Shown one piece after another: positions 16,379 through 34,009 of a stretch of DNA of 34,009 bases. A model generated the notes under the pieces. That model was given only the letters and a program-made list of their open reading frames with translations. It was not told where the DNA came from and did not search any database. The stretch is taken from positions 1-34,009 of IMG/VR virus record IMGVR_UViG_3300048578_000327; one strand, written 5' to 3'. The translations under genes and the position numbers were made by a program. Positions within the stretch are counted from its first letter, which is position 1. The number at the start of each line of letters is the position of its first letter. This DNA comes from a virus (Duplodnaviria; Caudoviricetes).

Positions 16379-16891
16379 GTCGTCGGGCTCCTGTGGTGAC
16401 GGTTGGGCGGTTACGGGTTCAGAAAACGAGACGGCGCCGCCCGCGTCGTCTTCGGAGAACTGGATGTCCTTGAGGCCGGCCACGGCCGGGGGCTGCGCGC
16501 CGAGGAAGGCGACATGGCGCAGATACCAATGGCCCGGCGTCGGGTTGTTGGGGGCGTGGGGCGGGTAGAACGAGCTGCTGCGCTTCTTGAAGCGGCCGGC
16601 CGCCACCATCTCGGCAAAGTTGGCTTCGACCTGGTGGGGGTTGGCGACCAGGCGGCCATCGGCCGAGACGCCCACGGACTTGACCCAGCCATAGGCGGGC
16701 AGGTTGTGCTCGGGGTGGCCCACGGTGAGCGGCGCTTCGCGCACGGCGGGGTCGTAGCGCTTGGCGATGCCCTCGATGTCCGCCGCCGTGAAGACGTGGA
16801 CATTGCCCGCATCGTCGATCAGGCGGCCGGGCCGGAAGATCTCGATGCCGTCGGGCAGCGTGGGAGAAGCGGGTGTGGCGGCTTGAGGCAT
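15860..16891 (-). CDS. Prohead protease with C-terminal scaffold (Mu I/Z analogue)
   Basis: IEIFRPG, APLTVGHP, PAYGWV, YLRHVAFLGAQPPAVAGL; coiled-coil C-terminal half. Confidence 0.92.
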   Translation of the reverse strand: MPQAATPASPTLPDGIEIFRPGRLIDDAGNVHVFTAADIEGIAKRYDPAVREAPLTVGHPEHNLPAYGWVKSVGVSADGRLVANPHQVEANFAEMVAAGRFKKRSSSFYPPHAPNNPTPGHWYLRHVAFLGAQPPAVAGLKDIQFSEDDAGGAVSFSEPVTAQPSPQEPDDMDKELQDKLAKAEADLAAANEAKARAEAEAAQAKKNAEAADQKAASFAEAARADRKAGFVSFAEAQVQAGHLLPKNQAMCVAALEVLADAQPVEFSEGDTTTKVSPAQWLQNLISSGPQVVSFGEFGGQAMRTVTGAKGKSDAEIDKAAQDYARQNKVSYADALTAVTTFTS

Positions 16892-16897
16892 GCCGCC

Positions 16898-16943
16898 AGT
16901 GTTCCGGGGCGGTGCCGCGAAGTATTGGGAACTAGGACACTAT
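16898..16943 (-). promoter_or_regulatory. Late promoter for the head operon (activator box plus -10)
   Basis: ATAGTGTCCTAGTTCCCAATAC-N18-AACACT; identical box at 24921-24942. Confidence 0.8.
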
Positions 16944-17028
16944 TTGCCGGGCTGGCCGGGCATGCGCGCCGTGTGGCTGCTGCCGGCCTACCTGCCGCGC
17001 TCGCTTCGGCGCGAACCCCTGCGGGAAG

Positions 17029-17042
17029 GCGTTTATAAACGC
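17029..17042. other. AT-core palindrome in the G-I intergenic region; candidate strong gyrase site
   Basis: Perfect 14-bp palindrome GCGTTTATAAACGC in a 227-bp non-coding gap at the position of the Mu SGS. Confidence 0.45.
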
Positions 17043-17118
17043 GCACAGGGCCCGAATAGCGCGCAGGGCGTGCCGTGGCCCTGTCCATGGCGCTGGGGCG
17101 CTTGTGCGGCCCCTGGCA

Positions 17119-17649
17119 TCACAGGTCCAGCAGCAGGTCGTTGATGGCCTCGACGATGAGGGCGCTTTCCTGGGGGTACAGGGTGCCGTCCTGGCGCACC
17201 GGCAGGTAGGGGCGCGCGGGAATATCGACCTTGAGCCCCCGGCCCGCCTTGCCGCCGAACTGGTGGATCGCGGCATACACGGGCGTGGCCCGCACCGTGA
17301 CCTGGTCGGCCGTGGCCTGCGCGACGATCTGGCGGCGCAAGTCGCCCGAATCGCCGATCAACGGCTTCTTGGCCGCGAGGCGGCGCTCCCCGGCCGCGTT
17401 GAGGTCGCCGCCCTTCTTGCGGTAGCTCTTGCCCAGGCGCGCGGCAACGATGCCGAGCGTGGCCGGCGCGTTGTCCTTCCATTTCACGCCATCGGGGCCG
17501 GTGCTGCTGCCGAAGCGCTGCTTGGTGCGCTCGGCGATGTCGTCGCCAATCGCCTGCAGGGCGGGCTGCAGGTTCTCGGCGCGCTCGGCCAGGCGCTGCA
17601 ACAGGTCCTGGACGGGCTGGTCTTGGACGATGACGGTGAAGCTGGTCAT
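17119..17649 (-). CDS. Virion morphogenesis protein (Mu gpG family)
   Basis: RFGSSTGPDG..W, YAAIHQFGG, IPARPYL. Confidence 0.92.
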   Translation of the reverse strand: MTSFTVIVQDQPVQDLLQRLAERAENLQPALQAIGDDIAERTKQRFGSSTGPDGVKWKDNAPATLGIVAARLGKSYRKKGGDLNAAGERRLAAKKPLIGDSGDLRRQIVAQATADQVTVRATPVYAAIHQFGGKAGRGLKVDIPARPYLPVRQDGTLYPQESALIVEAINDLLLDL

Positions 17650-17655
17650 AATCGA

Positions 17656-17732
17656 AAGCGGTAGGCGGTTGTTTCCAATGGGAATGGTTGGGGGCCCGGC
17701 CCTCATGATCCGGTTCGAATCCGGCGCCGCTT
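17656..17732 (+). ncRNA. Putative tRNA-like antisense RNA between muF and G
   Basis: TGGACG-N17-CATAAT promoter; 7-bp closing stem, two inner hairpins, T-arm CCGG-TTCGAAT-CCGG; G-U pairs form only on the + strand. Confidence 0.65.
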
Positions 17733-18984
17733 ACTCCCTCTTCAAAGGCACCATGTGCGGCTCGGACAGGAGGTTGTCCGGGTTCACCAGCCCCCCTGTT
17801 TGCACGAAGTTGGATACCAGGTGCGCACGCACGCCGTTGAAACGGCCTTTCATGTTGCGATTGACGCGCACCACCAGCTTTCCCCACCGCTCCCCCAGGT
17901 CCACCGAGTAGATCAGCGCCAGGTCGTTGGTATCGAGGTACGCCTCGGCGGTTTGCAGCAAGCGCGGCAGCTCTAGCCACACTTCAACGGGCAGGCCAGC
18001 GCCGCGTGTGGCCTTGGTGTCGCGCAGGGCATGCAGCAGCTCGGTGTCGCGCATCCAGACGGCGGCGTTCTCCAGGGCCACGCCCCGCGCCTCCAGGGCC
18101 CCCACGGTCTCCGGCGCCACGGTATGCACCTGGACGGTTTCCCCGCCCGCGCGCATGGCGCCGGCCGTGCCTTCGACCATGGCGCGCCAGCGCTGCAGGC
18201 GCTCCGCTTCCAGCGCCGGGCGCAACTCCTGCCACATGGCCGCGCCGATGGGCGCATCCAGAGCGAGCAGCTTGTCGTCGATGAAGCGCTGCAGGGGCCA
18301 GTCGGCCGCCGCGCCTGGCGCGTGGTCGAAGCCCTTGTCGATGCCCACCGGAGCGCCGGTCTTGGGGTCGATCTGCTCCCAGCCCTCGGGCGGCTCGCCC
18401 AGCCCGGCCTGCGCGCTGGCCTCGCCCTCGCGGGCGCTCACGGCAACGATGCGGCACTCGCAGCCGAACCCGTTGGGCGCGTAATGCGTTTTCCACCATG
18501 GGTGGTCATGCCGCAGCGTGATCCCGTGCCAGGCCAGGTGGTGCGGGCGCGGGTGCATGACGTTGTCGGAATGCAGGTAGCGCCAGAAGGGCCGCAGACG
18601 CACGTAGCCGGGCTCCAGCATCTGCTGGCGCCGCCCGGCCGCGTAGGACGCGGCCATGTTCGCCTGGTAGATGGTGCGTGTGCGCCAGGCCTCGCCGTCA
18701 GCCGATCCTTCCCCAGTCCAGCCGGTCCACCCATGCTTGGCGACGATGGCCCGGAAGTCGCGCCGGAATGCCTCCAGCCCGAGGCCATCGGTGGCGCGCT
18801 GCACCATGGCGGCCTGCAGGTCGGCCACCAGGTCGGCCTTGGCGGCGCCCGCGACGGCGAAGGCGCGGTCGTGCGCGGCCGCCGCGATCTGGCCCCAGCG
18901 CTCGGTGGGCAAGGCCAGCTTGGCGCGCAGGTAGGCGATCTGCGCATCAAAGGGCGTGCCGAAGCCAAAGGCGGTCTCAGGCAT
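17731..18984 (-). CDS. MuF minor head protein with C-terminal extension (probable PBECR-like RNase domain), 417 aa
   Basis: AHDRAFAVAGA, WRYLHSD..RPHHLAWHG, PNGFGCECRI, GIDKGFDHAPG, then about 190 extra residues. Confidence 0.88.
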   Translation of the reverse strand: MPETAFGFGTPFDAQIAYLRAKLALPTERWGQIAAAAHDRAFAVAGAAKADLVADLQAAMVQRATDGLGLEAFRRDFRAIVAKHGWTGWTGEGSADGEAWRTRTIYQANMAASYAAGRRQQMLEPGYVRLRPFWRYLHSDNVMHPRPHHLAWHGITLRHDHPWWKTHYAPNGFGCECRIVAVSAREGEASAQAGLGEPPEGWEQIDPKTGAPVGIDKGFDHAPGAAADWPLQRFIDDKLLALDAPIGAAMWQELRPALEAERLQRWRAMVEGTAGAMRAGGETVQVHTVAPETVGALEARGVALENAAVWMRDTELLHALRDTKATRGAGLPVEVWLELPRLLQTAEAYLDTNDLALIYSVDLGERWGKLVVRVNRNMKGRFNGVRAHLVSNFVQTGGLVNPDNLLSEPHMVPLKRE

Positions 18985-20527
18985 CGGCGCTGGCCTCGGT
19001 GCGGGCGGCGTCCATGCCCTTGAGCTCGGCCAGCGCGAAGGCGGCGGCGAGCAGGCGCGTGAGGTCGGCGGTGTCGAGCGAACCGTACTGCGCCAGGATG
19101 GCCTGGCGAACACCAGCGGCGTCGCCGGCCTGGCCGACGATTGCCTGCAGGTCGTCCACGACACGCTGCCACTCGGGGGCGGCGGCGCGCTCCAGGGCGT
19201 CCGTGACGGCGGCTACCGCGCTGGGCTGGCCGCCCTCGGCGAAGCTGGCGGGCCTGGTGCCGCCCGGCGCGGTGGGCTCGGGGGTGGGAGGCCCGGGCGG
19301 GGCCGGCTGGCGCTTGTGCCAGCCTTCGCCGTATTTCGCGCGCACCGTGTCTTCGTCGAGGTCGAAGCCCATGTTGTGCACCAGCGTGTCCGCTTCGGCC
19401 TGCGCCTTGATGTCAGCCTCTTCCTTGACCTGGCGGCCAACATGGCAAGGCTCAAAACCGTTGAACTCGCAAATCCAGGCGATGAGCGTTTCGTTGAGGG
19501 TCTCGGAGAGCAAGTCGCTGTCGGCCTGGGTCAAGTCCTGGCGCACGTTCTGGCGCTCTTTGCTGGCCGCAGCCAGCGCGCCGCCACCGGAGCGCGCCGG
19601 CTCCTGGCCCGTCAGCACTTCGCTGATCCAGTCGTCCATGTACTCGCATAGCTGCTGCTGGGTCGTGACGTTGCCCGACAGCTTCGCCTCCAGCAGCGCG
19701 ATCTCCATGCCCTCGGGCGTTGCCAGGTAGCCGTCGTTGCTCATGGCCCGCAGCGCGGCCACCAGCGTGGCTTTTTCCTGCGGTTCGGCGTTGCGCGGGT
19801 ATTTGCCGTGCGGCGTGGGCGAGCCGAAGCGGTCGCACAGCTTGTTCCAGGCCACGATGCCCTTGCGCTTGAAGAACACCGGCCAGAAAAGCTGCAGGCC
19901 CAGGCCCGTGCCGTAGGGGCTGTCGTCCTCGGGGTTGACGCGGTGCACGATGAACTTGCGCTCGGGCACCGGCACGCCCTTGAGCATGGCGCTCCGCGTG
20001 AGCATCTGCAGGCGCGGCGGTCTGTTCTCGTCGTCCTGCACGTACACGAAGCGGCGCTGCGCACGCTTGGGCACCCGCAGAGGTACGACCTGGCCGTCAC
20101 GAATGCCCCACACGATCTCGGCGATGGAGTGGCCCGCGAGCAGCGCCTCCAGCAGGTCGGCGCACAGCTTGTCGAAGGCAAAGCCCTTGAGGATTTCCGT
20201 GACCTTGAGCGCGTCGGCGGTGGCCTTGGCGTGGTTCCTGGCGCGTGGCTCGACCTGCCAGGTCTTGCCGATCAGCGCGAGCTGACGCTTTTGCAGCCCG
20301 GAGAACACCTTGCCGTCGCGGCGCAAGTCGCGGTACAGCTCGACGCCGCCGTTGCCGCGCTCCAGCAGCAGGGGGTCGTTGGTGCGCAGGACGCCCATGT
20401 AGGGCGCCTCGAATGGGTCGCGCAGCCGGTTGGCGAATTCAACGCCCAGCTCAGGCCGGGGCTGGGCGCCCGCGTGGGATGCCGCGCGGGCTGTGCGGCG
20501 TTGATTGCTGCGGGGGGCCTTAGCCAT
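18977..20527 (-). CDS. Portal protein (Mu gp29/DUF935)
   Basis: GHSIAEIVW, PYGTGLG..LFWPVFFKR, DRFGSP...GKY. Confidence 0.95.
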   Translation of the reverse strand: MAKAPRSNQRRTARAASHAGAQPRPELGVEFANRLRDPFEAPYMGVLRTNDPLLLERGNGGVELYRDLRRDGKVFSGLQKRQLALIGKTWQVEPRARNHAKATADALKVTEILKGFAFDKLCADLLEALLAGHSIAEIVWGIRDGQVVPLRVPKRAQRRFVYVQDDENRPPRLQMLTRSAMLKGVPVPERKFIVHRVNPEDDSPYGTGLGLQLFWPVFFKRKGIVAWNKLCDRFGSPTPHGKYPRNAEPQEKATLVAALRAMSNDGYLATPEGMEIALLEAKLSGNVTTQQQLCEYMDDWISEVLTGQEPARSGGGALAAASKERQNVRQDLTQADSDLLSETLNETLIAWICEFNGFEPCHVGRQVKEEADIKAQAEADTLVHNMGFDLDEDTVRAKYGEGWHKRQPAPPGPPTPEPTAPGGTRPASFAEGGQPSAVAAVTDALERAAAPEWQRVVDDLQAIVGQAGDAAGVRQAILAQYGSLDTADLTRLLAAAFALAELKGMDAARTEASADA

Positions 20528-26488: not shown

Positions 26489-26928
26489 GCGGTATGTCCA
26501 GCAAGCATCTTACTGGCGCGACCGCCGCGCCTGCCACTACGGCCTCCTATCTGGTACGCAAGGTCAGCTCGCTCCTGACGGTCGAAGTGCACGGCAATAC
26601 ATGGTCCGTAGCGGGCCTGCAGGGCGTACAGGTGGGCGACCGCGTGCTGTGCCTGCCCACCCCTGACGAGGCCCAGGTATTCGTGCAGCGCGAGACCATG
26701 GGCGCAGCTCACGGTCTGTGGGCCGCGCCAGTGGTGCGCGACACCTTCGGCTTTCCCGTAGACACCCCCATCATTGGCTGCTCTCTCGCCGGTGTTCCGC
26801 CAAGCGCTCTTGGTACTGCGCGCGCATCTGATCCAGGTGCAGAGCCATCTCTTCTAGGGTGCGGCGCGCGGTCACAAGCTGAGGCTTGTCTGTATCGCTC
26901 GGCACAGCCGCCCGCCAGCGGCGAGTGA
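26485..26928 (+). CDS. Stand-alone protein resembling the transposase C-terminal domain (147 aa)
   Basis: ATGA-coupled to ner; 13/32 ungapped identities to a C-terminal segment of the transposase at 29121-30941. Confidence 0.65.
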   Translation: MSGMSSKHLTGATAAPATTASYLVRKVSSLLTVEVHGNTWSVAGLQGVQVGDRVLCLPTPDEAQVFVQRETMGAAHGLWAAPVVRDTFGFPVDTPIIGCSLAGVPPSALGTARASDPGAEPSLLGCGARSQAEACLYRSAQPPASGE

Positions 26929-27040
26929 GGGAGTGGCCATCCATGTCCGTCTCCCTCTCCATCACCCAGGCCAGCGTGATCACGGCCCGGCCGATGCCTT
27001 CGATGCGGCCCGCGAGTTCGTCAAAGTCCCGTGTGTCCAT
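26771..27040 (-). CDS. Hypothetical 89-aa protein antisense to the early operon
   Basis: Strong GGAGGGAGG SD before MDTRDFDELAGRIEG; helical protein-like sequence. Confidence 0.7.
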   Translation of the reverse strand: MDTRDFDELAGRIEGIGRAVITLAWVMERETDMDGHSLTRRWRAAVPSDTDKPQLVTARRTLEEMALHLDQMRAQYQERLAEHRRESSQ

Positions 27041-27151
27041 GGTTTCCTCCCTCCGTATGGTTGCGATGGCCGCACTGTACGGCTCGCAAACCCTTGCGGC
27101 GCAGGCCAATCCGGCTATTTGTTTGGAAGCCCAGGCGGCGGGGTGCCTCCA

Positions 27152-27619
27152 ATGACCCGCCGCAATTGGAAAGCCCTGCAGCCCACCAGCCTGCGCAACG
27201 CGCTGGAGCTGTGCAAGGACCATGCACGCGAGAAGCTCAACAAGAGCGTGGAGGGCATCGCCGAGGACATGGGCATTGCCGACCATTGGTCGCTCTACAA
27301 GTGGCTGCAGAACGGCCGCATGCCCTTGGTGCTGGTGCGCCCCTACGAACTGGCCTGCGGCATCGACTTCGTGACGCGCTGGATGGCTGCGAGCAGCGGG
27401 CGGCTGCTGGTGCAGGTTGCCACGGGCCGCAAGCTGACCCCTGTTGACGTGGTGGAGCTGCATGAGCACTTCGCCACGGCGGTGAAGCTGCTCACCGACT
27501 ACTACGCCAAGCCCGGCGACCCATCGGCCACGCTGGCCGCCCTGAGCACCCACATGGAGCACGTTGCCTGGCATCGCCAGAACGTGGCCCAGCACATCAA
27601 CCCGCAGTTGGAGCTTTGA
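27152..27619 (+). CDS. Phage regulatory HTH protein (CII-like)
   Basis: SVEGIAEDMG...SLYKWLQNGRMP...YELACG; ends QLEL. Confidence 0.75.
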   Translation: MTRRNWKALQPTSLRNALELCKDHAREKLNKSVEGIAEDMGIADHWSLYKWLQNGRMPLVLVRPYELACGIDFVTRWMAASSGRLLVQVATGRKLTPVDVVELHEHFATAVKLLTDYYAKPGDPSATLAALSTHMEHVAWHRQNVAQHINPQLEL

Positions 27620-27621
27620 CC

Positions 27622-27852
27622 ATGTCCATTACCTTCCACCCCACGGTCGAGAACGAACTGGGCGTTATCCGCCTGGCCGAGCTCAAGCACGACGACGTGC
27701 TCTGGAACATCAAGAGCACACAGCGCGGCGGCTTGGTGATCAGCCGCGATGACGACGGCACCCACGTCAGCCTGCGCGTACCGCGCGAGTTGCTCGTCGC
27801 CCTGGTGCGCGAGATGGCAACCCAGGTGGAAGCGCTGGAGGACCAGTCGTGA
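27622..27852 (+). CDS. Hypothetical early protein
   Basis: GGAG SD; fills the gap with an overlapping stop/start. Confidence 0.7.
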   Translation: MSITFHPTVENELGVIRLAELKHDDVLWNIKSTQRGGLVISRDDDGTHVSLRVPRELLVALVREMATQVEALEDQS

Positions 27853-28157
27853 GCACCGACACGAAAACCGGCGCCCAGGTGGACCGCGCCCTGGACATGC
27901 TGGAGTGCCTGGCCGGCCGCGTGCTGGATGGCATGAGCAACAAGGACTTGGCCGCCGCGCTGCGCTGCCCGCCGCCCTATGTGACGCGCACGGCCGAGCA
28001 GCTCATGCGCAAGGGCTGGGTCGAAAAGGACGAAGCCACCGGGCGCTTTCGCATCACCACCCGCTTTTCCCGCCTGACGTTCCGCGTCCTGGCGGACTTC
28101 GACCGCGCCAAGCAGGCCCTGGAGGCCGCGCAGCGCAACTACACCCTGAGCAACTGA
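27849..28157 (+). CDS. IclR-type winged HTH protein
   Basis: VDRALDMLECL...GMSNKDLAAAL...VTR...L..KGWVEKDEATGRFRI. Confidence 0.85.
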   Translation: MSTDTKTGAQVDRALDMLECLAGRVLDGMSNKDLAAALRCPPPYVTRTAEQLMRKGWVEKDEATGRFRITTRFSRLTFRVLADFDRAKQALEAAQRNYTLSN

Positions 28158-28167
28158 GAGAGGAAGC

Positions 28168-29124
28168 ATGGCACGCACCCCCACCAAAACAACGCCGCCC
28201 GCAGCCGAGCCCGCGCTGAACGAGGCGGCCCTGGCAACGCTGGACGCCGCGCCGCGCCAACTGGCCGTGGCGCACGAAGCCATGGACGAGGTTCTGGCCG
28301 CAGGCATTGACCTGGGACGACTGGAGGCGCTGGACTTTGTGGCCGTGACGGCCAACACAGCAATGCTTGCAATCTACGAAAACGTAAAAAAATCAAAGGC
28401 TTGGCGCTTGTTGCGGAATCCGCAAGATGGCCGAAACGGCCATTTTGAAAGTCTGGAAGATTTTTGCGAGGTCAAGCTCGGTAAGTCCTACAAGCGTCTA
28501 CGCACTCTGGCCGCGCAGAAGAACCTGCTGGGTCAAGACGCCTATGAGCAGGCCGAACGCCTGGGCCTGCGTGACGTTGACTACAACGCCATCAAGGCTC
28601 TGCCTGCACCCGATCAGGAACTGGTGCGCCGCGCGGTGGAAGAAGCCACCACCCGCGAGCAGGTGCTCGACGTGCTGCACGACCTGGCCGCGCGCAACGT
28701 GCAGCGGGAGGCGGCGCTGCAGGCCGAGCTGCAGGATGCGCGCGACCAGGCCGAGGACCTGGCCGCCAGCAAGAAGGCCGTGGAGAGCCAGGTGGCCGAC
28801 CTGCGCAAGCAGGCCCGCCGCCTGGCGCAGGCCACGCCCGACGAGGTGGCCGCCGATCTGCGCGGCCAGGTGATGGACGCCGTGAAGACCATCGAGGCCG
28901 ACATTCGCGGGCCGCTGGCCGATGGCCTGGAACAGCTCATGACCCACGGCGAAGAAACCGGCCACGGGCAGATGGCCTGGGTGAAGGGCCAGCTCGAAGC
29001 GGTGCTGGATCGTCTCAAGACCGTGGCGGGCCGCATGGGCATTGAGCTGGTGGCCGATACCGGCAAGCCGGCCTGGCTCGCGGGCGCGGTTATCCCTGGC
29101 GTGGCGGCCGAGGCGGCGCAGTGA
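28168..29124 (+). CDS. Conserved pre-transposase protein (DUF3102-like, coiled coil)
   Basis: F.SLEDFCEVKLGKSY...NLLG.DAYEQ...LGL; immediately upstream of the transposase. Confidence 0.75.
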   Translation: MARTPTKTTPPAAEPALNEAALATLDAAPRQLAVAHEAMDEVLAAGIDLGRLEALDFVAVTANTAMLAIYENVKKSKAWRLLRNPQDGRNGHFESLEDFCEVKLGKSYKRLRTLAAQKNLLGQDAYEQAERLGLRDVDYNAIKALPAPDQELVRRAVEEATTREQVLDVLHDLAARNVQREAALQAELQDARDQAEDLAASKKAVESQVADLRKQARRLAQATPDEVAADLRGQVMDAVKTIEADIRGPLADGLEQLMTHGEETGHGQMAWVKGQLEAVLDRLKTVAGRMGIELVADTGKPAWLAGAVIPGVAAEAAQ

Positions 29125-30941
29125 TGATGGCCGCGCCAAACCCAGCACAGACCCAGCGGCTCGTGCACTACGGGCAGGCTGTGGCGGCTGCGGCCTGGGG
29201 CCGCAAGACCGCGATCTACGCCGAGGCAGCCCAGGAGCTGGGTTTGTCGGTGCAGACGGTGATCCGCAAGATCGGCGAAGTGACTGCGAAGACGACGGCG
29301 CCGCGCAAGCGCCGCACGGACGCGGGCACGTCGGCCCTGACAAAAGCCGAGGCTGCGCGCATTGCGCTCGACGTGATGGAGCACATGCGCAAGAACGGCA
29401 AGCGCATCCAGTCCATGAAGGACGCGGTGGAGGAGCTGCGCGCCAACGCGCTGATCCGCGCCGAGCGCGTCACGGGCGATGGTGAGGTGGTGCCGCTGTC
29501 GGTGTCGGCCATCGTGGCCGCGCTGCGCAAGTACCGCTTTCATCCTGACCAGCTTCTGGCGCCCGCGCCGGCCATCCGCATGGCGAGCCTGCACCCCAAC
29601 CACTGCTGGCAGATCGACGCCTCGCGCTGCGTGATGTACTACCTTCCGGCCCAGGGCAAGGACACGGGCCTGCGGGTGGCCGATCACACGGACTACTACG
29701 ATAACAAGCCCAAGAACGTGGCACGGCAGGTGCTGGACAGCCTGTGGCGCTATGTGGTGACCGACCATACCTCGGGCGCGATTTTCGTGTGGTACGTGGT
29801 GGGCGGCGAGACGGGCGGGAATCTGGCCGAGGTGTTCATCCAGGCCGTCCACCAGCGTGGCAAAGACCCGTTCTACGGCGTGCCGCGCATGGTGATGCTC
29901 GACCCCGGCGGCGCCAACACCAGCCCGCCGTTTCTGAACCTGTGCAAGGCGCTGCGCGTGCATGTGCAGATCAACAAGCCCAAGAACCCGCGCGCCAAGG
30001 GCCAGGTGGAGAAGGCGCAGGACATCGTGGAGCGCAGCCTGGAGTCGGCCTTCAAGCTGCTCACGCTGGAGACGCTGGAGCAGATCAACGCGGTGGCGCT
30101 GCAGTGGGGCCGGTGGTTCAACGCCACCCAGGTGCATACGCGCCACGACATGACGCGGTTTTCCGCCTGGATGCGCATTGCGCCCGACCAGCTCGTGCTG
30201 GCGCCCGGCATCGAGCTTTGCCGCGAGCTGGCGGTGTCGGCACCGCTCACGCGGGTGGTGAACGACTTCCACGAGGTGGAGTTCCTGGGGGAGACCTGGG
30301 ACGTGTCGGGCGTGCCCGGGATCATCGTGGGCCAGAAGCTGCAGATCGTGCGCAACGCATGGCGCCCGGATTCGGCCCAGGCTGTGGGCGTGGATGCCGA
30401 GGGCCGCGAGTGCTTCCATGTCCTGGAGCGCAAGGTGAAGGGGGATTTCGGATTTCACGAGGGCTCGGCCATCGTGGGCGAGTCGTTCAAGCGCCATGCC
30501 GATACGCCCGCACAGCGCAACCTCGCCGAGATCGAGATGCTGGCTACGGGCGCCAAGACGGCGTCCGAAGCCGCCGAGGTGCGCAAGGCGATGGCGAAGG
30601 GCAAGGGGCCGCAGGTGCTGGGCGGTGCCATTGACCCGCTCAAGCGTATGCGTGATGCCGTGATCCCTATCTATATGCCGCGCAAGGGCACGGCGCTGGA
30701 GGTGGTGAATCCGCTCGCCAACGGCGAGGTGCTCGACCAAGTGGAGACGACGGTCGCTATTCAGCGCATCGCCAAGCGCATCGGCCGCCCGATCACCCGC
30801 GAGGAAAACCGCTTCGTCAAGGGCCGCTGGCCCGACGTGATGCCCGAGGCGCAGGTCGAGGCCCTGGTGGCGCAGTTCTTGGGCAGCGATGCATGGCCGT
30901 CCGAGTCGTTCGAGGGCCTGCGGGCCGTAGGGGGTGCGTGA
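29121..30941 (+). CDS. DDE transposase A (Mu/B3-type)
   Basis: HPNHCWQIDAS (D), MLDPGGAN (D), NPRAKGQVE (E); N-terminal HTH and RKRRTDAG. Confidence 0.95.
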   Translation: MMMAAPNPAQTQRLVHYGQAVAAAAWGRKTAIYAEAAQELGLSVQTVIRKIGEVTAKTTAPRKRRTDAGTSALTKAEAARIALDVMEHMRKNGKRIQSMKDAVEELRANALIRAERVTGDGEVVPLSVSAIVAALRKYRFHPDQLLAPAPAIRMASLHPNHCWQIDASRCVMYYLPAQGKDTGLRVADHTDYYDNKPKNVARQVLDSLWRYVVTDHTSGAIFVWYVVGGETGGNLAEVFIQAVHQRGKDPFYGVPRMVMLDPGGANTSPPFLNLCKALRVHVQINKPKNPRAKGQVEKAQDIVERSLESAFKLLTLETLEQINAVALQWGRWFNATQVHTRHDMTRFSAWMRIAPDQLVLAPGIELCRELAVSAPLTRVVNDFHEVEFLGETWDVSGVPGIIVGQKLQIVRNAWRPDSAQAVGVDAEGRECFHVLERKVKGDFGFHEGSAIVGESFKRHADTPAQRNLAEIEMLATGAKTASEAAEVRKAMAKGKGPQVLGGAIDPLKRMRDAVIPIYMPRKGTALEVVNPLANGEVLDQVETTVAIQRIAKRIGRPITREENRFVKGRWPDVMPEAQVEALVAQFLGSDAWPSESFEGLRAVGGA

Positions 30942-32173
30942 TGCTGAATCTGCGCGCCGACCTGGCTGCTCACGGCGGCTCTCAATCCGATTGCGCCCGC
31001 CATGTGGGCGTGAGCACCGCCACGATTTCGCTGGCGATCAACTTCAACCGCTGGCCCAAGACACGCATCGGCGAAGGCGCCCTGAAGGAGCGCATCCGCC
31101 AGTACCTCACGTTGCTCGGCGCCCCCCCGGAGACGGTGGCGGCGACGTTTGACGAAGCACCTGCAGCCCCGCGCGCCAACGCGGGTCTGCAGGCGATGGC
31201 GCAAGCCACTCACTCCGGCCCCCAAACCAGTCAATTCAAGGACGAGGAAATGCTACCAAGAAAGCACACGATCACCCCGGACGCACGGGACTACTTCAAC
31301 CTGGAACGCGACCCCTTCAACAACGAGGTTCGCAGCGCGGCCGATCTGTGGATGAACGACAACATCCGCCGCGTGCGCGCGGCGGTGCGCAATGTGGCCC
31401 AGCACGGCGGCATGCTGGCGGTGATCGCGGAATCGGGCGCGGGCAAGTCCACGCTGCGCAAGGACTTGGCGCACTGGATCAAGTCGCAGGCGCAGCCGGT
31501 GATCGTGGCGGAGCCGTACATCCTCGGTATGGAGGACAGCATGCGCAAGGGCCGGCCGCTGCGCGCCGAGGACATCACCACGGCGGTGATCAATCGCCTG
31601 CTGCCCGGTGCGCCGATCCGGCAATCCGACCAGCGGCGCAAGGCGCAGATGCACGAGGCGCTGCGGGCCAGCGCGGAGACGGGCAACCGGCACATCCTCA
31701 TTATTGAAGAGGGGCACCGCCTGGCGCGCGAGACGATCCGGCACTTCAAGGGGTTCTATGAGCTGGAGGACGGTTTCACTTCGCTGCTGTCGATCCTGAT
31801 CATCGGTCAGACCGAGCTGGACTGGAAGCTGGGCGAGGGTGACTTCGATGTGCGGGAGGTCGTGCAGCGCCTGGAGAAGCGCTACCTCGACCCTATCGAC
31901 AACGACGTGGAAGGTTACCTGCGGCACAAGTTCGAGCGGGTTGGCGCGGACTACGACAAGGTGATGGCCCCCGACGCCGCTGAGGCCATCGTGGCCCGCT
32001 TGTACGTCAAGTCCGAGGCGCGCGTGCGTGGGCAGCGCTCCCTCGGCCCGCGCTCGCAGTGCCATCCGCTGGCGATCAACAACCTTGTCTCCGGCGCCAT
32101 CAATCTGGCGCACCAAGGCGGCGAAGAGCGCGTCACGGGCAAGCTGGTGGCCCAGGTGGATCGGGGGGAGTGA
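30941..32173 (+). CDS. Transposition AAA+ ATPase B (ExeA-like) with N-terminal HTH
   Basis: Walker A AESGAGKST, Walker B LIIEEGH, IIGQTEL, REVVQR. Confidence 0.92.
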   Translation: MLNLRADLAAHGGSQSDCARHVGVSTATISLAINFNRWPKTRIGEGALKERIRQYLTLLGAPPETVAATFDEAPAAPRANAGLQAMAQATHSGPQTSQFKDEEMLPRKHTITPDARDYFNLERDPFNNEVRSAADLWMNDNIRRVRAAVRNVAQHGGMLAVIAESGAGKSTLRKDLAHWIKSQAQPVIVAEPYILGMEDSMRKGRPLRAEDITTAVINRLLPGAPIRQSDQRRKAQMHEALRASAETGNRHILIIEEGHRLARETIRHFKGFYELEDGFTSLLSILIIGQTELDWKLGEGDFDVREVVQRLEKRYLDPIDNDVEGYLRHKFERVGADYDKVMAPDAAEAIVARLYVKSEARVRGQRSLGPRSQCHPLAINNLVSGAINLAHQGGEERVTGKLVAQVDRGE

Positions 32174-32175
32174 GC

Positions 32176-32328
32176 ATGCGCAGATACCTCTTGATCATCC
32201 ATATGGACGATGGCTCCAAGGGCAGGCTGCGCGGGGAATGGTGCAGCGACTGGGAGGCCATTGCTGCGATTCTCGGCTCGGGTCTGGAGCACGTCATGGC
32301 CGTGGTGCCGCGCCGGGAGGCCGCATGA
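32176..32328 (+). CDS. Hypothetical 50-aa protein
   Basis: MRRYLLIIHMDDGSKG; GGAG SD; coupled to its neighbours. Confidence 0.65.
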   Translation: MRRYLLIIHMDDGSKGRLRGEWCSDWEAIAAILGSGLEHVMAVVPRREAA

Positions 32329-32567
32329 AGCGCCGCCGCAACCATCCTCTGATTCCCATTGTGGTGTGGCTGGGCGTGGCGCTGGCTTGCTGCCTGTTCG
32401 CCCTGGTGCTGGTGCTGATTCGCACGGCCGGCCAGGATGAGCAGCTCGACCGCGCCCACACGGCGGGCATGGAACTGGGGCAGCAGATGTGCCTGGGCTT
32501 GCGCTCGGAGCTGGAGCGCGCCCCGGTGCGCGCGCCTGCCGTCCACGCGCCGGGAGGGCTGCTCTGA
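32325..32567 (+). CDS. Small membrane protein (80 aa)
   Basis: GGAGG SD, basic N-terminus, one long TM segment. Confidence 0.7.
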   Translation: MKRRRNHPLIPIVVWLGVALACCLFALVLVLIRTAGQDEQLDRAHTAGMELGQQMCLGLRSELERAPVRAPAVHAPGGLL

Positions 32568-33181
32568 TGGCTGATCTGGTCAACACCTGTCCGTCCTGCG
32601 GCGCCGAGGAAAGCCTGGACGTGATGTTCAGCCGCATGGTGGACGACGACATCGTGCGCCGTGCCATCCATGACGTGGTGATCAAGTCGCTGCCGCTGGG
32701 CGCCATGCTGCTGCGCTACATCCGCCTGCACAAGCCGCCCAAGCAGCGGCTGCGCATGACACGGCTGCGCGAGCTGCTCTCCGAACTGGCGGGCGACATG
32801 GCGCGCAACGTGATCGAGCGCCACGGCCGCACCTGGGCCGTGACGAACGACGACTGGCGCGGCGCTTTCGAGGCGGTCTTCACGGCCGCGGACAAGGGCA
32901 CGCTGCGGCTTCCGCTGCAAAGCAATAGCTACCTGTATCAGGTGCTGTCGCGCCAGGCCGATGAGGTCGAGGCAGCGCAGGAAGAAAAGCGCGAGCAGGA
33001 GCGCCGCAACGCGGGCCGCGCGCACTCCAGCGCCGCGCCCACGAACGTGGGCGAGCTGCTGGCGGCTGCGGCCCCACCTTCGGCGGCACCTCGGCACGCC
33101 GCATCCATGCCGTCTCCCGGCATGTCTCCCACGGTGCGCGCGATGCGCGCGCAGGTCAAAACCCCGAAAGGCCAGCCATGA
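32567..33181 (+). CDS. Conserved transposable-phage early protein with N-terminal CxxC
   Basis: CPSCGAEESLD...LRYIRLHKPPKQRL...LPLQSNSYLYQVL. Confidence 0.85.
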   Translation: MADLVNTCPSCGAEESLDVMFSRMVDDDIVRRAIHDVVIKSLPLGAMLLRYIRLHKPPKQRLRMTRLRELLSELAGDMARNVIERHGRTWAVTNDDWRGAFEAVFTAADKGTLRLPLQSNSYLYQVLSRQADEVEAAQEEKREQERRNAGRAHSSAAPTNVGELLAAAAPPSAAPRHAASMPSPGMSPTVRAMRAQVKTPKGQP

Positions 33182-33468
33182 GCATCCCATCCCCCACGCC
33201 CGAGCAGCGCGCGGCGTTTCGTCAAAAGGCTCTCGCCATGGCGCATCAGATCGCCAGGGCATTTGAAGGTGATCAAGAAGTTTTTGTCGTACTGGAGGCG
33301 CTCATGCTGGCGCATAGGTATGTCGCCTCCACTCTGCCGCCGGACATGGTTGGCACTGTTGCTATGGAAATGGCTGGCTATGCCGGTGAACTGATGCAGG
33401 CCGATGCCAAACGCATAAGCCTGCGCTTTTCCGGCACCCCTTCCATCCCCATGTCGCCCATGCATTGA
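33178..33468 (+). CDS. Hypothetical 96-aa protein
   Basis: ATGA overlap; more AT-rich than its neighbours. Confidence 0.7.
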   Translation: MSIPSPTPEQRAAFRQKALAMAHQIARAFEGDQEVFVVLEALMLAHRYVASTLPPDMVGTVAMEMAGYAGELMQADAKRISLRFSGTPSIPMSPMH

Positions 33469-33481
33469 AAGGAGCATCTTT

Positions 33482-34009
33482 ATGGATCAATCCGCAGTCC
33501 CCGATGGCTACATGCGCAACGCGCAGGGCCATCTTGTCCCCATCGAACTGGTCAAGCCCATCGACCAAGAGCGCGACCGCCTGGTGCGCGAGCTGACGGC
33601 TCTTGCCAAAGACCTGTCCGCGCGCCTGGTTGCGGGCAAGTCCAAGATATTCGGCGACGTGGCCGCGTTCGCCGAACTGAGCGCCGAGCAGTACGGCGTG
33701 AAGCGCGGCGGCACAAAGGGCAATATCACGCTGCACACCTACGACGGCGCCTTCAAGCTGCAGATCGCCACGGCCGAGAACATGACGTTCGACGAGCGCC
33801 TGCAGGCGGCCAAGGCCCTGGTGGATGAGTGCATCAACGAATGGGCGCGGGGCAGCAGGCCCGAGATCATCGCGCTGGTGCAGCAGGCGTTCCAGACCGA
33901 CAGGGAAGGAAACGTCAACGTGGGCCGCATCCTGGGCCTGCGCCGCCTGGAGATCACGGACGAGCGCTGGCGGGCGGCGATGACGGCCATCGGCGAGTCG
34001 GTGCAGGTG
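33482..34009 (+). CDS. DUF3164-family protein, truncated by the window end
   Basis: AAGGAG SD; MDQSAVPDGYMRNAQGHLVP..LVKPID..RD...GGTKGNITL.TYDG...FDERLQAAKALVDECI; absent from the ORF track because it has no stop. Confidence 0.88.
   Translation, partial: MDQSAVPDGYMRNAQGHLVPIELVKPIDQERDRLVRELTALAKDLSARLVAGKSKIFGDVAAFAELSAEQYGVKRGGTKGNITLHTYDGAFKLQIATAENMTFDERLQAAKALVDECINEWARGSRPEIIALVQQAFQTDREGNVNVGRILGLRRLEITDERWRAAMTAIGESVQV

Follow-up and report, generated by a model that had tools for sequence, protein, structure and literature searches.

A tRNA-shaped antisense RNA coupled to predicted active RNase tips of MuF head proteins in Mu-like phages

Introduction

What could keep a phage head protein in check when its tip looks like a nuclease and no gene for an immunity protein follows it? 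MuF polymorphic toxins have been described with immunity proteins, and the available text of that work leaves the proteobacterial 'Ct_MAD' extensions of MuF unexplained (Jamet et al. 2017, PMC5576092). The locus that raises the question lies in a virus record of 34,009 bases, the whole of which we analysed and call the window, and whose Mu-like late genes (terminase, portal, muF, G, protease and major head) are on the minus strand. Here muF (17731..18984, minus strand, 417 aa) encodes a Mu gp30-like head protein, matched by Pfam Phage_Mu_F over residues 57-179, and is separated by a tRNA-shaped RNA from gene G (17119..17649, minus strand; neck/tail completion, Phage_tail_S). The gap between the two genes measures 81 bp, as a preliminary description of this DNA had stated; it holds no immunity-protein ORF directly downstream of muF, and is occupied by the RNA and a promoter-like site, with the muF stop codon lying within the closing stem of the RNA. 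Close relatives in named genomes are mostly from Betaproteobacteria. At its right end the window has several long ORFs (26774-33990) whose translations match nothing in Pfam or PHROGs, for example 28614-30740, 31253-32116 and 32294-33262 on the minus strand.

Results

The tip of MuF is a predicted RNase domain

The preliminary description had counted about 190 residues beyond the MuF core; indeed, ~193 follow the GIDKGFDHAPG motif, the first ~30 of which are common to short MuF proteins. The C-terminal tip, residues ~276-417 (17734..18159, minus strand), is predicted from alignment, models and structure searches to be a PBECR/MuF-C-like RNase. Its conserved residues in an alignment of 114 homologues are H318 (codon 18031-33), R321, K324, N392 and T396 (codon 17797-99, all on the minus strand), H318 and T396 being at least 90% conserved. 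The published site of PBECR RNases consists of a His in a helix and a C-terminal Thr (Iyer et al. 2017, PMC5512222), and by alignment the helix His and C-terminal Thr of the tip match it.

That the extension resembles a PBECR nuclease had been suggested by eye, and the structural searches found a BECR-like fold, at modest scores. Two AlphaFold models of the tip (pLDDT 93.8 and 91.9) were compared with known structures using VIA-align, and the top rows of both searches list BrnT, colicin D, CdiA-CT and RelE/ParE, with best Z scores of 4.8 and 5.7 (the best match having Z 5.7 and rmsd 3.8 over 75 aligned residues). Foldseek against viral models returned six matches at E<=0.001, and MuF-C-labelled proteins at E 0.002-0.005; against the PDB it gave no match at E<=0.001, and a profile search of PDB sequences with the tip returned nothing relevant. 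As modelled, the tip has the helix and following antiparallel sheet of the BECR fold, a call carried by the agreement among the rows. In Pfam, the window's tip has no PBECR or MuF_C match and lies below all cut-offs; Mu gp30 scores below the MuF_C cut-off too, and MuF_C is found in 5 of 22 relatives (best E 2.7e-6). Leads in the ESM atlas to PBECR2, MuF_C, PBECR3 and LPD3, at 0.79-0.85, are under the tool's reliable range. We class the tip as a PBECR/MuF-C-like domain with predicted RNase activity. Close MuF cores bear PBECR-like tips, HExxH peptidase-like tips or none.

A covarying four-arm RNA lies antisense to the end of muF

The gap had been read as a cloverleaf on the plus strand, and a covarying, tRNA-shaped, four-arm fold was found there, with helices that differ in part from those first drawn. 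This non-coding element, our type A, spans 17661..17734 on the plus strand (its ends are predicted from the closing stem) and is exactly antisense to the late mRNA. For covariation, we aligned 56 distinct copies of type A. The loci had been collected with protein and DNA searches, and the copies were selected in them with a motif expression in which parts of the D- and T-like loops are constant. In the revised fold, 94.9% of 1064 cells are paired across these 56 homologues, against 33-54% in slid controls, and 11 of the 19 pairs show two-sided changes. The acceptor-like closing stem (helix 1), whose 5' strand at 17661..17669 pairs with 17726-17734, is paired in 92.7% of cells, with two-sided changes in seven of nine pairs. 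A middle arm at 17689..17705, which has no anticodon loop, is 100% paired (helix 3) and variable in both length and sequence. The T-arm CCGG-UUCGAAU-CCGG at 17710..17724 (stem 17710-13/17721-24; helix 4) is also 100% paired, with one compensatory pair, in four sequences of the alignment. Between closing stem and middle arm, the segment CCA-AUGGGAA-UGG at 17675..17687 (stem 17675-77/17685-87) resembles a D arm with GG in its loop. Its register is weakly fixed: one pair has three compensatory and 17 unpaired cases among the 56 copies, and RNAalifold, which recovers the same helices otherwise, prefers UUCC/GGAA. Variants of the D-like stem with CCU/AGG were seen, and further compensated variants come from Pasteurella phage AFS-2018a and five other loci. 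The UUCRA loop of the T-arm and the GG of the D-loop are invariant or nearly so in these 56 copies, which were selected partly on these motifs.

Of the fold as first drawn, the hairpin around 17691-17703 and the T-arm at 17710-24 stand, as does the lack of a CCA end and an anticodon arm; the denial of a canonical D arm was probably wrong. The closing stem proposed at 17656-62/17726-32 reaches only 50.9% paired cells across the 56 homologues, and the 11-bp stem rich in G-U pairs (17666-76/17680-90), which shows a two-sided change at 1 of 11 pairs, is excluded by the supported closing stem. The evidence for the fold is comparative, since the single sequence folds no better than its shuffles (z -0.92 to +0.58). 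On these comparative grounds, the RNA element is real and conserved.

A covariance model, R1, gives 87.3 bits to 17661..17734, its sole match in the window. In Pasteurella phage AFS-2018a the model scores a copy at 51.7 bits, although a blastn search of cultured phages with the RNA as query returned no match. At gathering score, Rfam 15 matches nothing in the window, the best resemblance being to tRNA-Sec at E=1.2 only, nor does Rfam match the RNAs in 20 related loci at that score. ARAGORN calls no tRNA in the window. Of ten family loci tested, four are called tRNA (L246, L247, L006 and L194); an eleventh locus, a true tRNA cluster, is outside the ten. From these calls, together with the D-loop GG and the T-loop, we infer that the family is derived from tRNA. 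The middle arm varies freely and the window's RNA has neither an encoded CCA nor an anticodon arm, so the RNA does not look able to decode.

Upstream of the RNA, the site TGGACG-N17-CATAAT that the preliminary description had named is present as a predicted sigma70-like promoter (17624..17652, plus strand; -35 at 17624-29, -10 at 17647-52), its -10 box overlapping the start codon of G. It is the only promoter-like site in 16800-19200 (shuffles give a mean of 0.1). A -10-like hexamer with its end 14-20 nt ahead of the conserved core is present in 57 of 58 copies; a control window has one in 5 of 58, and shuffled sequences average 8.4 (maximum 16). Part of this signal is borrowed, as in 11 of the 58 copies the hexamer is CATAAT and overlaps a start codon. 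Downstream of the RNA we found no terminator-like site.

The RNA goes with tips that keep the predicted catalytic histidine

To relate the RNA to the state of the tip, we reduced 162 locus rows to 103 distinct complete tips, dropping L213, L217 and L160 (contig ends) and L007 and L021 (early stop), and added five cultured phages whose His and RNA state was known beforehand, giving 108. Catalytic status was read from the alignment only; RNA presence and type were read from the loci, the T-loop types being supported by a model and type C assigned by eye and folding. An adjacent antisense RNA accompanies 94 of 96 His-bearing tips and 0 of 12 His-less ones, and no tip of the 108 has the RNA without the His. 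The two His-bearing tips that lack it are L059 and L183, the latter retaining a 3' remnant. Behind the 12 His-less tips, G starts -19 to +5 nt from the muF stop. On a quick, unfinished tree, in which Mu, Bhz63 and JBD18 have long branches, these tips occupy about five places, so the number of independent losses is approximate. Likewise, the Fisher p of 3e-14 for the association is inflated by kinship among the rows and overstates the evidence.

Cultured phages illustrate both states. Phage Mu's own domain has been described as inactive (Iyer et al. 2017, PMC5512222), and in Mu, F overlaps G. JBD18 has neither the His nor a gap, whereas its sister B3 has retained the His, and its gap of 123 nt contains a structured segment; a TATAGT box and complementary loops can be seen there by eye. 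The annotated ORF34 of B3 (L221:1939-2037; 32 aa) lies opposite this predicted kissing-loop RNA, and may be a mis-annotation. Short MuF genes leave no room for an RNA: in all eight with a measured gap (four loci and four phages), -9 to 14 nt separate muF from G, and the RNA is absent there.

We further surveyed 14 phage records chosen by the MuF core alone. Six have an intact-looking PBECR-like tip and a gap with a structured antisense segment, as judged by eye. The others comprise four short MuF proteins, Bhz63 and H71 without a gap, B23 without G, and HS6, in which a peptidase tip is followed by a 75-aa ORF. H71 has a PBECR2 match above the Pfam cut-off and is a counter-example, unless the basic residues that by eye are missing from it mean that the domain is inactive. 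Alteromonadaceae phage B23, which is His-less by eye and has no gene G, was not counted, and Ralstonia phage RS138, whose muF looks frameshifted at the tip, was left out. Peptidase-like tips, screened for T-loop and R1 matches, gave neither. The co-loss shows a coupling of the RNA to the predicted active domain, and does not by itself give the direction of that coupling.

Types, tandems and orphans

Searches that start from the RNA lead back to the tips. A 17-base gap pattern matched 26 viral loci, several of them near-identical phages: two are chance matches, and the other 24 hold the full element, each of them adjoining a tip. Searching with a T-arm pattern produced 70 matches, spread over 69 viral loci, and 68 of these matches lie beside a tip; tips also adjoin type B RNAs at 13 of 16 loci and type C RNAs at 16 of 20. 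A scan of 151 genomes from a single order, in which 30 candidates per genome were scored, matched at least five places; among the matches listed, three are beside tips, one is beside a remnant and one is an orphan.

Types A, B, D and H have D-like and T arms in common, the type A model scoring them at 14-52 bits. Type C keeps the four-arm layout, and in it the first and third loops pair with one another, kissing loops standing in place of the D/T contact; these loop pairs covary (CGGA/UCCG, CAGC/GCUG, UCGGC/GCCGA and CGGC/GCCG). The types cluster on the protein tree, with 18 changes for six labels against a shuffled mean of 48.9. On the other hand, type A is found behind distant KxxRH tips, and types B, D and H lie within the type A clade. 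As types switch between close tips, the pairing is not strictly cognate, which fits recognition by shape and weakens a lock-and-key model of immunity. In the muF tips of L006 and L038, an 11-residue deletion just after the conserved His accompanies a switch from type A to type B.

Other structured segments also lie behind muF. Behind PBECR3-like tips there is another RNA type, in which a CGUUUCGGACGUU-like motif takes two layouts related by circular permutation (L080, L081, L085, L088, L096, L112, L125, L126, L136, L171, L201, L208, L215, L216, L227 and L389-L392). In phages RR1-B and RcWaterboi (L232 and L234), whose PBECR2 tips are His-less and bear Lys/Arg, the muF-G gap holds antisense two-hairpin segments with covarying complementary loops (GCGAU/AUCGC versus GUGAU/AUCAC). 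Distinct structured segments are seen behind PBECR-like tips at L095, L200, L114, L174, L219, L235, L238 and L231, and the five of these that were tested have no Rfam match. A related Mu-like prophage carries a C4 antisense RNA (Rfam RF01695, 67 bits) at L057:3548-3632.

Some loci carry more than one RNA: at L010 type B adjoins the gene with A beyond it, at L020 type C is followed by A, at L046 A by B, and at L461 A by A. At both L010 and L020, the RNA adjoining the gene is of the type that the nearest protein relative has. A viral record of 5830 bp (G158) has a C-A-C array behind a single -10-like TAGAAT box (L384:372-641); the element carries genes like RstA/G2P and RstB, and lacks a MuF tip. 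Other orphan copies occur on the Methylotuvimicrobium conjugative plasmid NC_016108 (L462:3001-3073; type A, upstream of a UvrD helicase gene), in genome G030 (L246/L248, G030:C1:710687-710769; tRNA-like) and in a complete virus record; none of these three records has a tip match, and several other orphan records are fragments. The G030 copy, which ARAGORN calls tRNA-Ser, is closely followed by a 708-aa HIRAN-domain gene and a HigBA-like pair. Copies of this kind may be mis-annotated as tRNAs in genomes (as may L247 and L194). In a Thauera genome, a second type A RNA stands behind a tip remnant (L244, G002:C13:428-511), adjoined by a gene pair which we take to be Xre/RES-like. By analogy, the tandem RNAs and the three-RNA array resemble orphan immunity cassettes.

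Discussion

We posit that the segment 17661-17734 likely gives an RNA that is probably an antitoxin for a virion-borne, predicted RNase at the tip of MuF, and that this RNA replaces an immunity protein. The RNA is likely an antidote as it is missing wherever the tip has lost its predicted catalytic residue, and an antitoxin is the simplest account of an RNA that sits in the slot of the immunity ORF, has its own predicted promoter, is kept with a predicted active enzyme, and has spare and orphan copies. How could this work? The tip would be an active RNase of the BECR kind, with tRNA-shaped targets as its probable substrates, and the RNA would be transcribed in the lysogen and early after infection. 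It would fold into an L shape by a D/T contact or, in the sister types, a kissing loop, and in this shape would occupy the enzyme as a bound inhibitor or a slowly cut decoy. Such an RNA would guard the MuF-making cell in late growth, and lysogens against RNase injected by incoming heads, and a naive cell would be exposed to the RNase until the incoming genome makes the RNA. In a lineage where the catalytic residue is lost, the RNA would become useless and be deleted.

Could the RNA serve the enzyme rather than restrain it? It may be a working partner that is cut or carried by the tip, the complex or a released tRNA mimic acting outward, for instance as a decoy that is packaged and delivered with MuF and aimed at host defences that cut or sense tRNA. 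We regard this as unlikely, even if a partner or decoy explains the co-loss with the catalytic His equally well, and a generic decoy fits both the loose pairing of RNA types with protein clades and the orphans on a plasmid, a chromosome and other viruses. An outward decoy should be useful without the enzyme, yet none of the 12 His-less tips has kept the RNA and most copies adjoin an intact tip; moreover, the separate, opposite-strand, host-type predicted promoter has no tie to late expression.

The position of the RNA, exactly antisense to the late mRNA with its stem over the muF stop codon, and the CATAAT box that overlaps the start of G in 11 of 58 copies, bring to mind control in cis: the RNA or its transcription would dampen muF, by antisense pairing at the junction of muF stop and G start or by convergent transcription, the tRNA shape serving for stability only. 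Such control would be needed only where the tip is harmful. Nevertheless, pairing with the 3' end of muF is not easily a block to translation, and antisense pairing calls for neither near-invariant D- and T-loop letters nor kissing-loop substitutes for them, and neither for tandem copies nor for copies away from muF; we find cis control improbable. Least credible, and very improbable in our view, is that the RNA acts as a tRNA-like signal for processing (t-element), or is what is left of a tRNA gene, unlinked to tip activity. The tRNA ancestry of the family and the ARAGORN calls at four loci speak for it. However, the late mRNA comes from the other strand, so the RNA cannot mark where it is cut, the co-loss with the His would be left without a reason, and the kissing-loop types have no T-loop for processing enzymes to read.

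Returning to the antitoxin, a wider picture is possible, and we offer it tentatively: Mu-like phages would carry polymorphic toxins with RNA immunity, in which L-shaped RNAs, either tRNA-derived or of the kissing-loop kind, check virion-borne PBECR RNases. Cassettes would be swapped at the 3' end of muF and old RNAs left behind, and a filamentous-phage-like element and a conjugative plasmid would collect the orphans as immunity to RNases of incoming phages. If true, this would be the first RNA immunity factor that we could find for a polymorphic or virion-delivered toxin, with tRNA genes recycled as nuclease inhibitors, and the missing immunity ORFs of proteobacterial MuF extensions would be explained. 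The presence of the RNA would then be a genomic read-out of active PBECR domains, and tRNA-shaped targets would be indicated for the family. The module is a small one, a 140-aa domain and a 75-nt RNA, for which contrasts already exist among phages (B3 versus JBD18 and Mu).

A full-text literature search returned no description of the pairing of the RNA with MuF tips; supplements, motif catalogues and subscription papers could list the motif. So could the large RNA-motif surveys that reportedly appeared in 2017 (Weinberg) and 2022 (Fremin). Judging from sequence comparisons and that search, an RNA family coupled to predicted active phage-head RNases is apparently undescribed.

Comparison with known systems

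The RNA shares D-like and T arms with tRNA, tRNA-Sec, tmRNA and the tRNA-like domains of bacterial Y RNAs, but neither it nor the RNAs of 20 related loci match these in Rfam at gathering score. A tRNA gene likewise has a T-arm with a UUCRA loop and GG in the D-loop; here, in contrast, the middle arm varies freely, there is no 7-nt anticodon loop and CCA is not encoded. In type III toxin-antitoxin systems, ToxI lies upstream in the operon of its toxin, ToxN, which cuts it into pseudoknots and is itself a free protein resembling MazF. The locus described here has, by contrast, a single tRNA-derived RNA downstream on the opposite strand, and a predicted toxin fused to a head protein. What the two would share is an RNA that directly inhibits a protein toxin, as in ToxIN and AvcID (PMC11951105), where ToxI is a tandem repeat array.

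Allo-tRNAs, with a 12-bp acceptor branch of 8/4 or 9/3 stems and with anticodon arms, are mostly acidobacterial, and some allo- or irregular tRNAs are non-translating and found near toxin-antitoxin systems (Mukai et al., PMC5389517). They resemble our RNA in their long acceptor stem and short T-stem; the RNA here differs in being about 9/4 with an outer stem of varying length, in having neither anticodon arm nor CCA, and in being tied to one enzyme family. The protein has the MuF fusion, BECR-like fold, helix His and C-terminal Thr of PBECR/MuF-C domains (PMC5512222; Pfam PF18810, PF18812 and PF18819). It differs from those Pfam families in falling short of their cut-offs, and a partner RNA is not described for them in the available text of PMC5512222 or of the 2026 BECR preprint (10.64898/2026.08.28.747851).

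The closest parallel in layout is with the MuF polymorphic toxins (PMC5576092): a MuF N-terminus with a swappable tip, a small element behind the stop codon and a temperate phage. There, a small ORF fills the slot behind the stop codon; here, the slot is taken by a structured RNA that is read from the other strand and preceded by a promoter-like site of its own. The locus departs both from this protein-immunity layout and from the layout features of type III systems that we compared, and would be a new variant of type III if every RNA-inhibited toxin were counted as type III.
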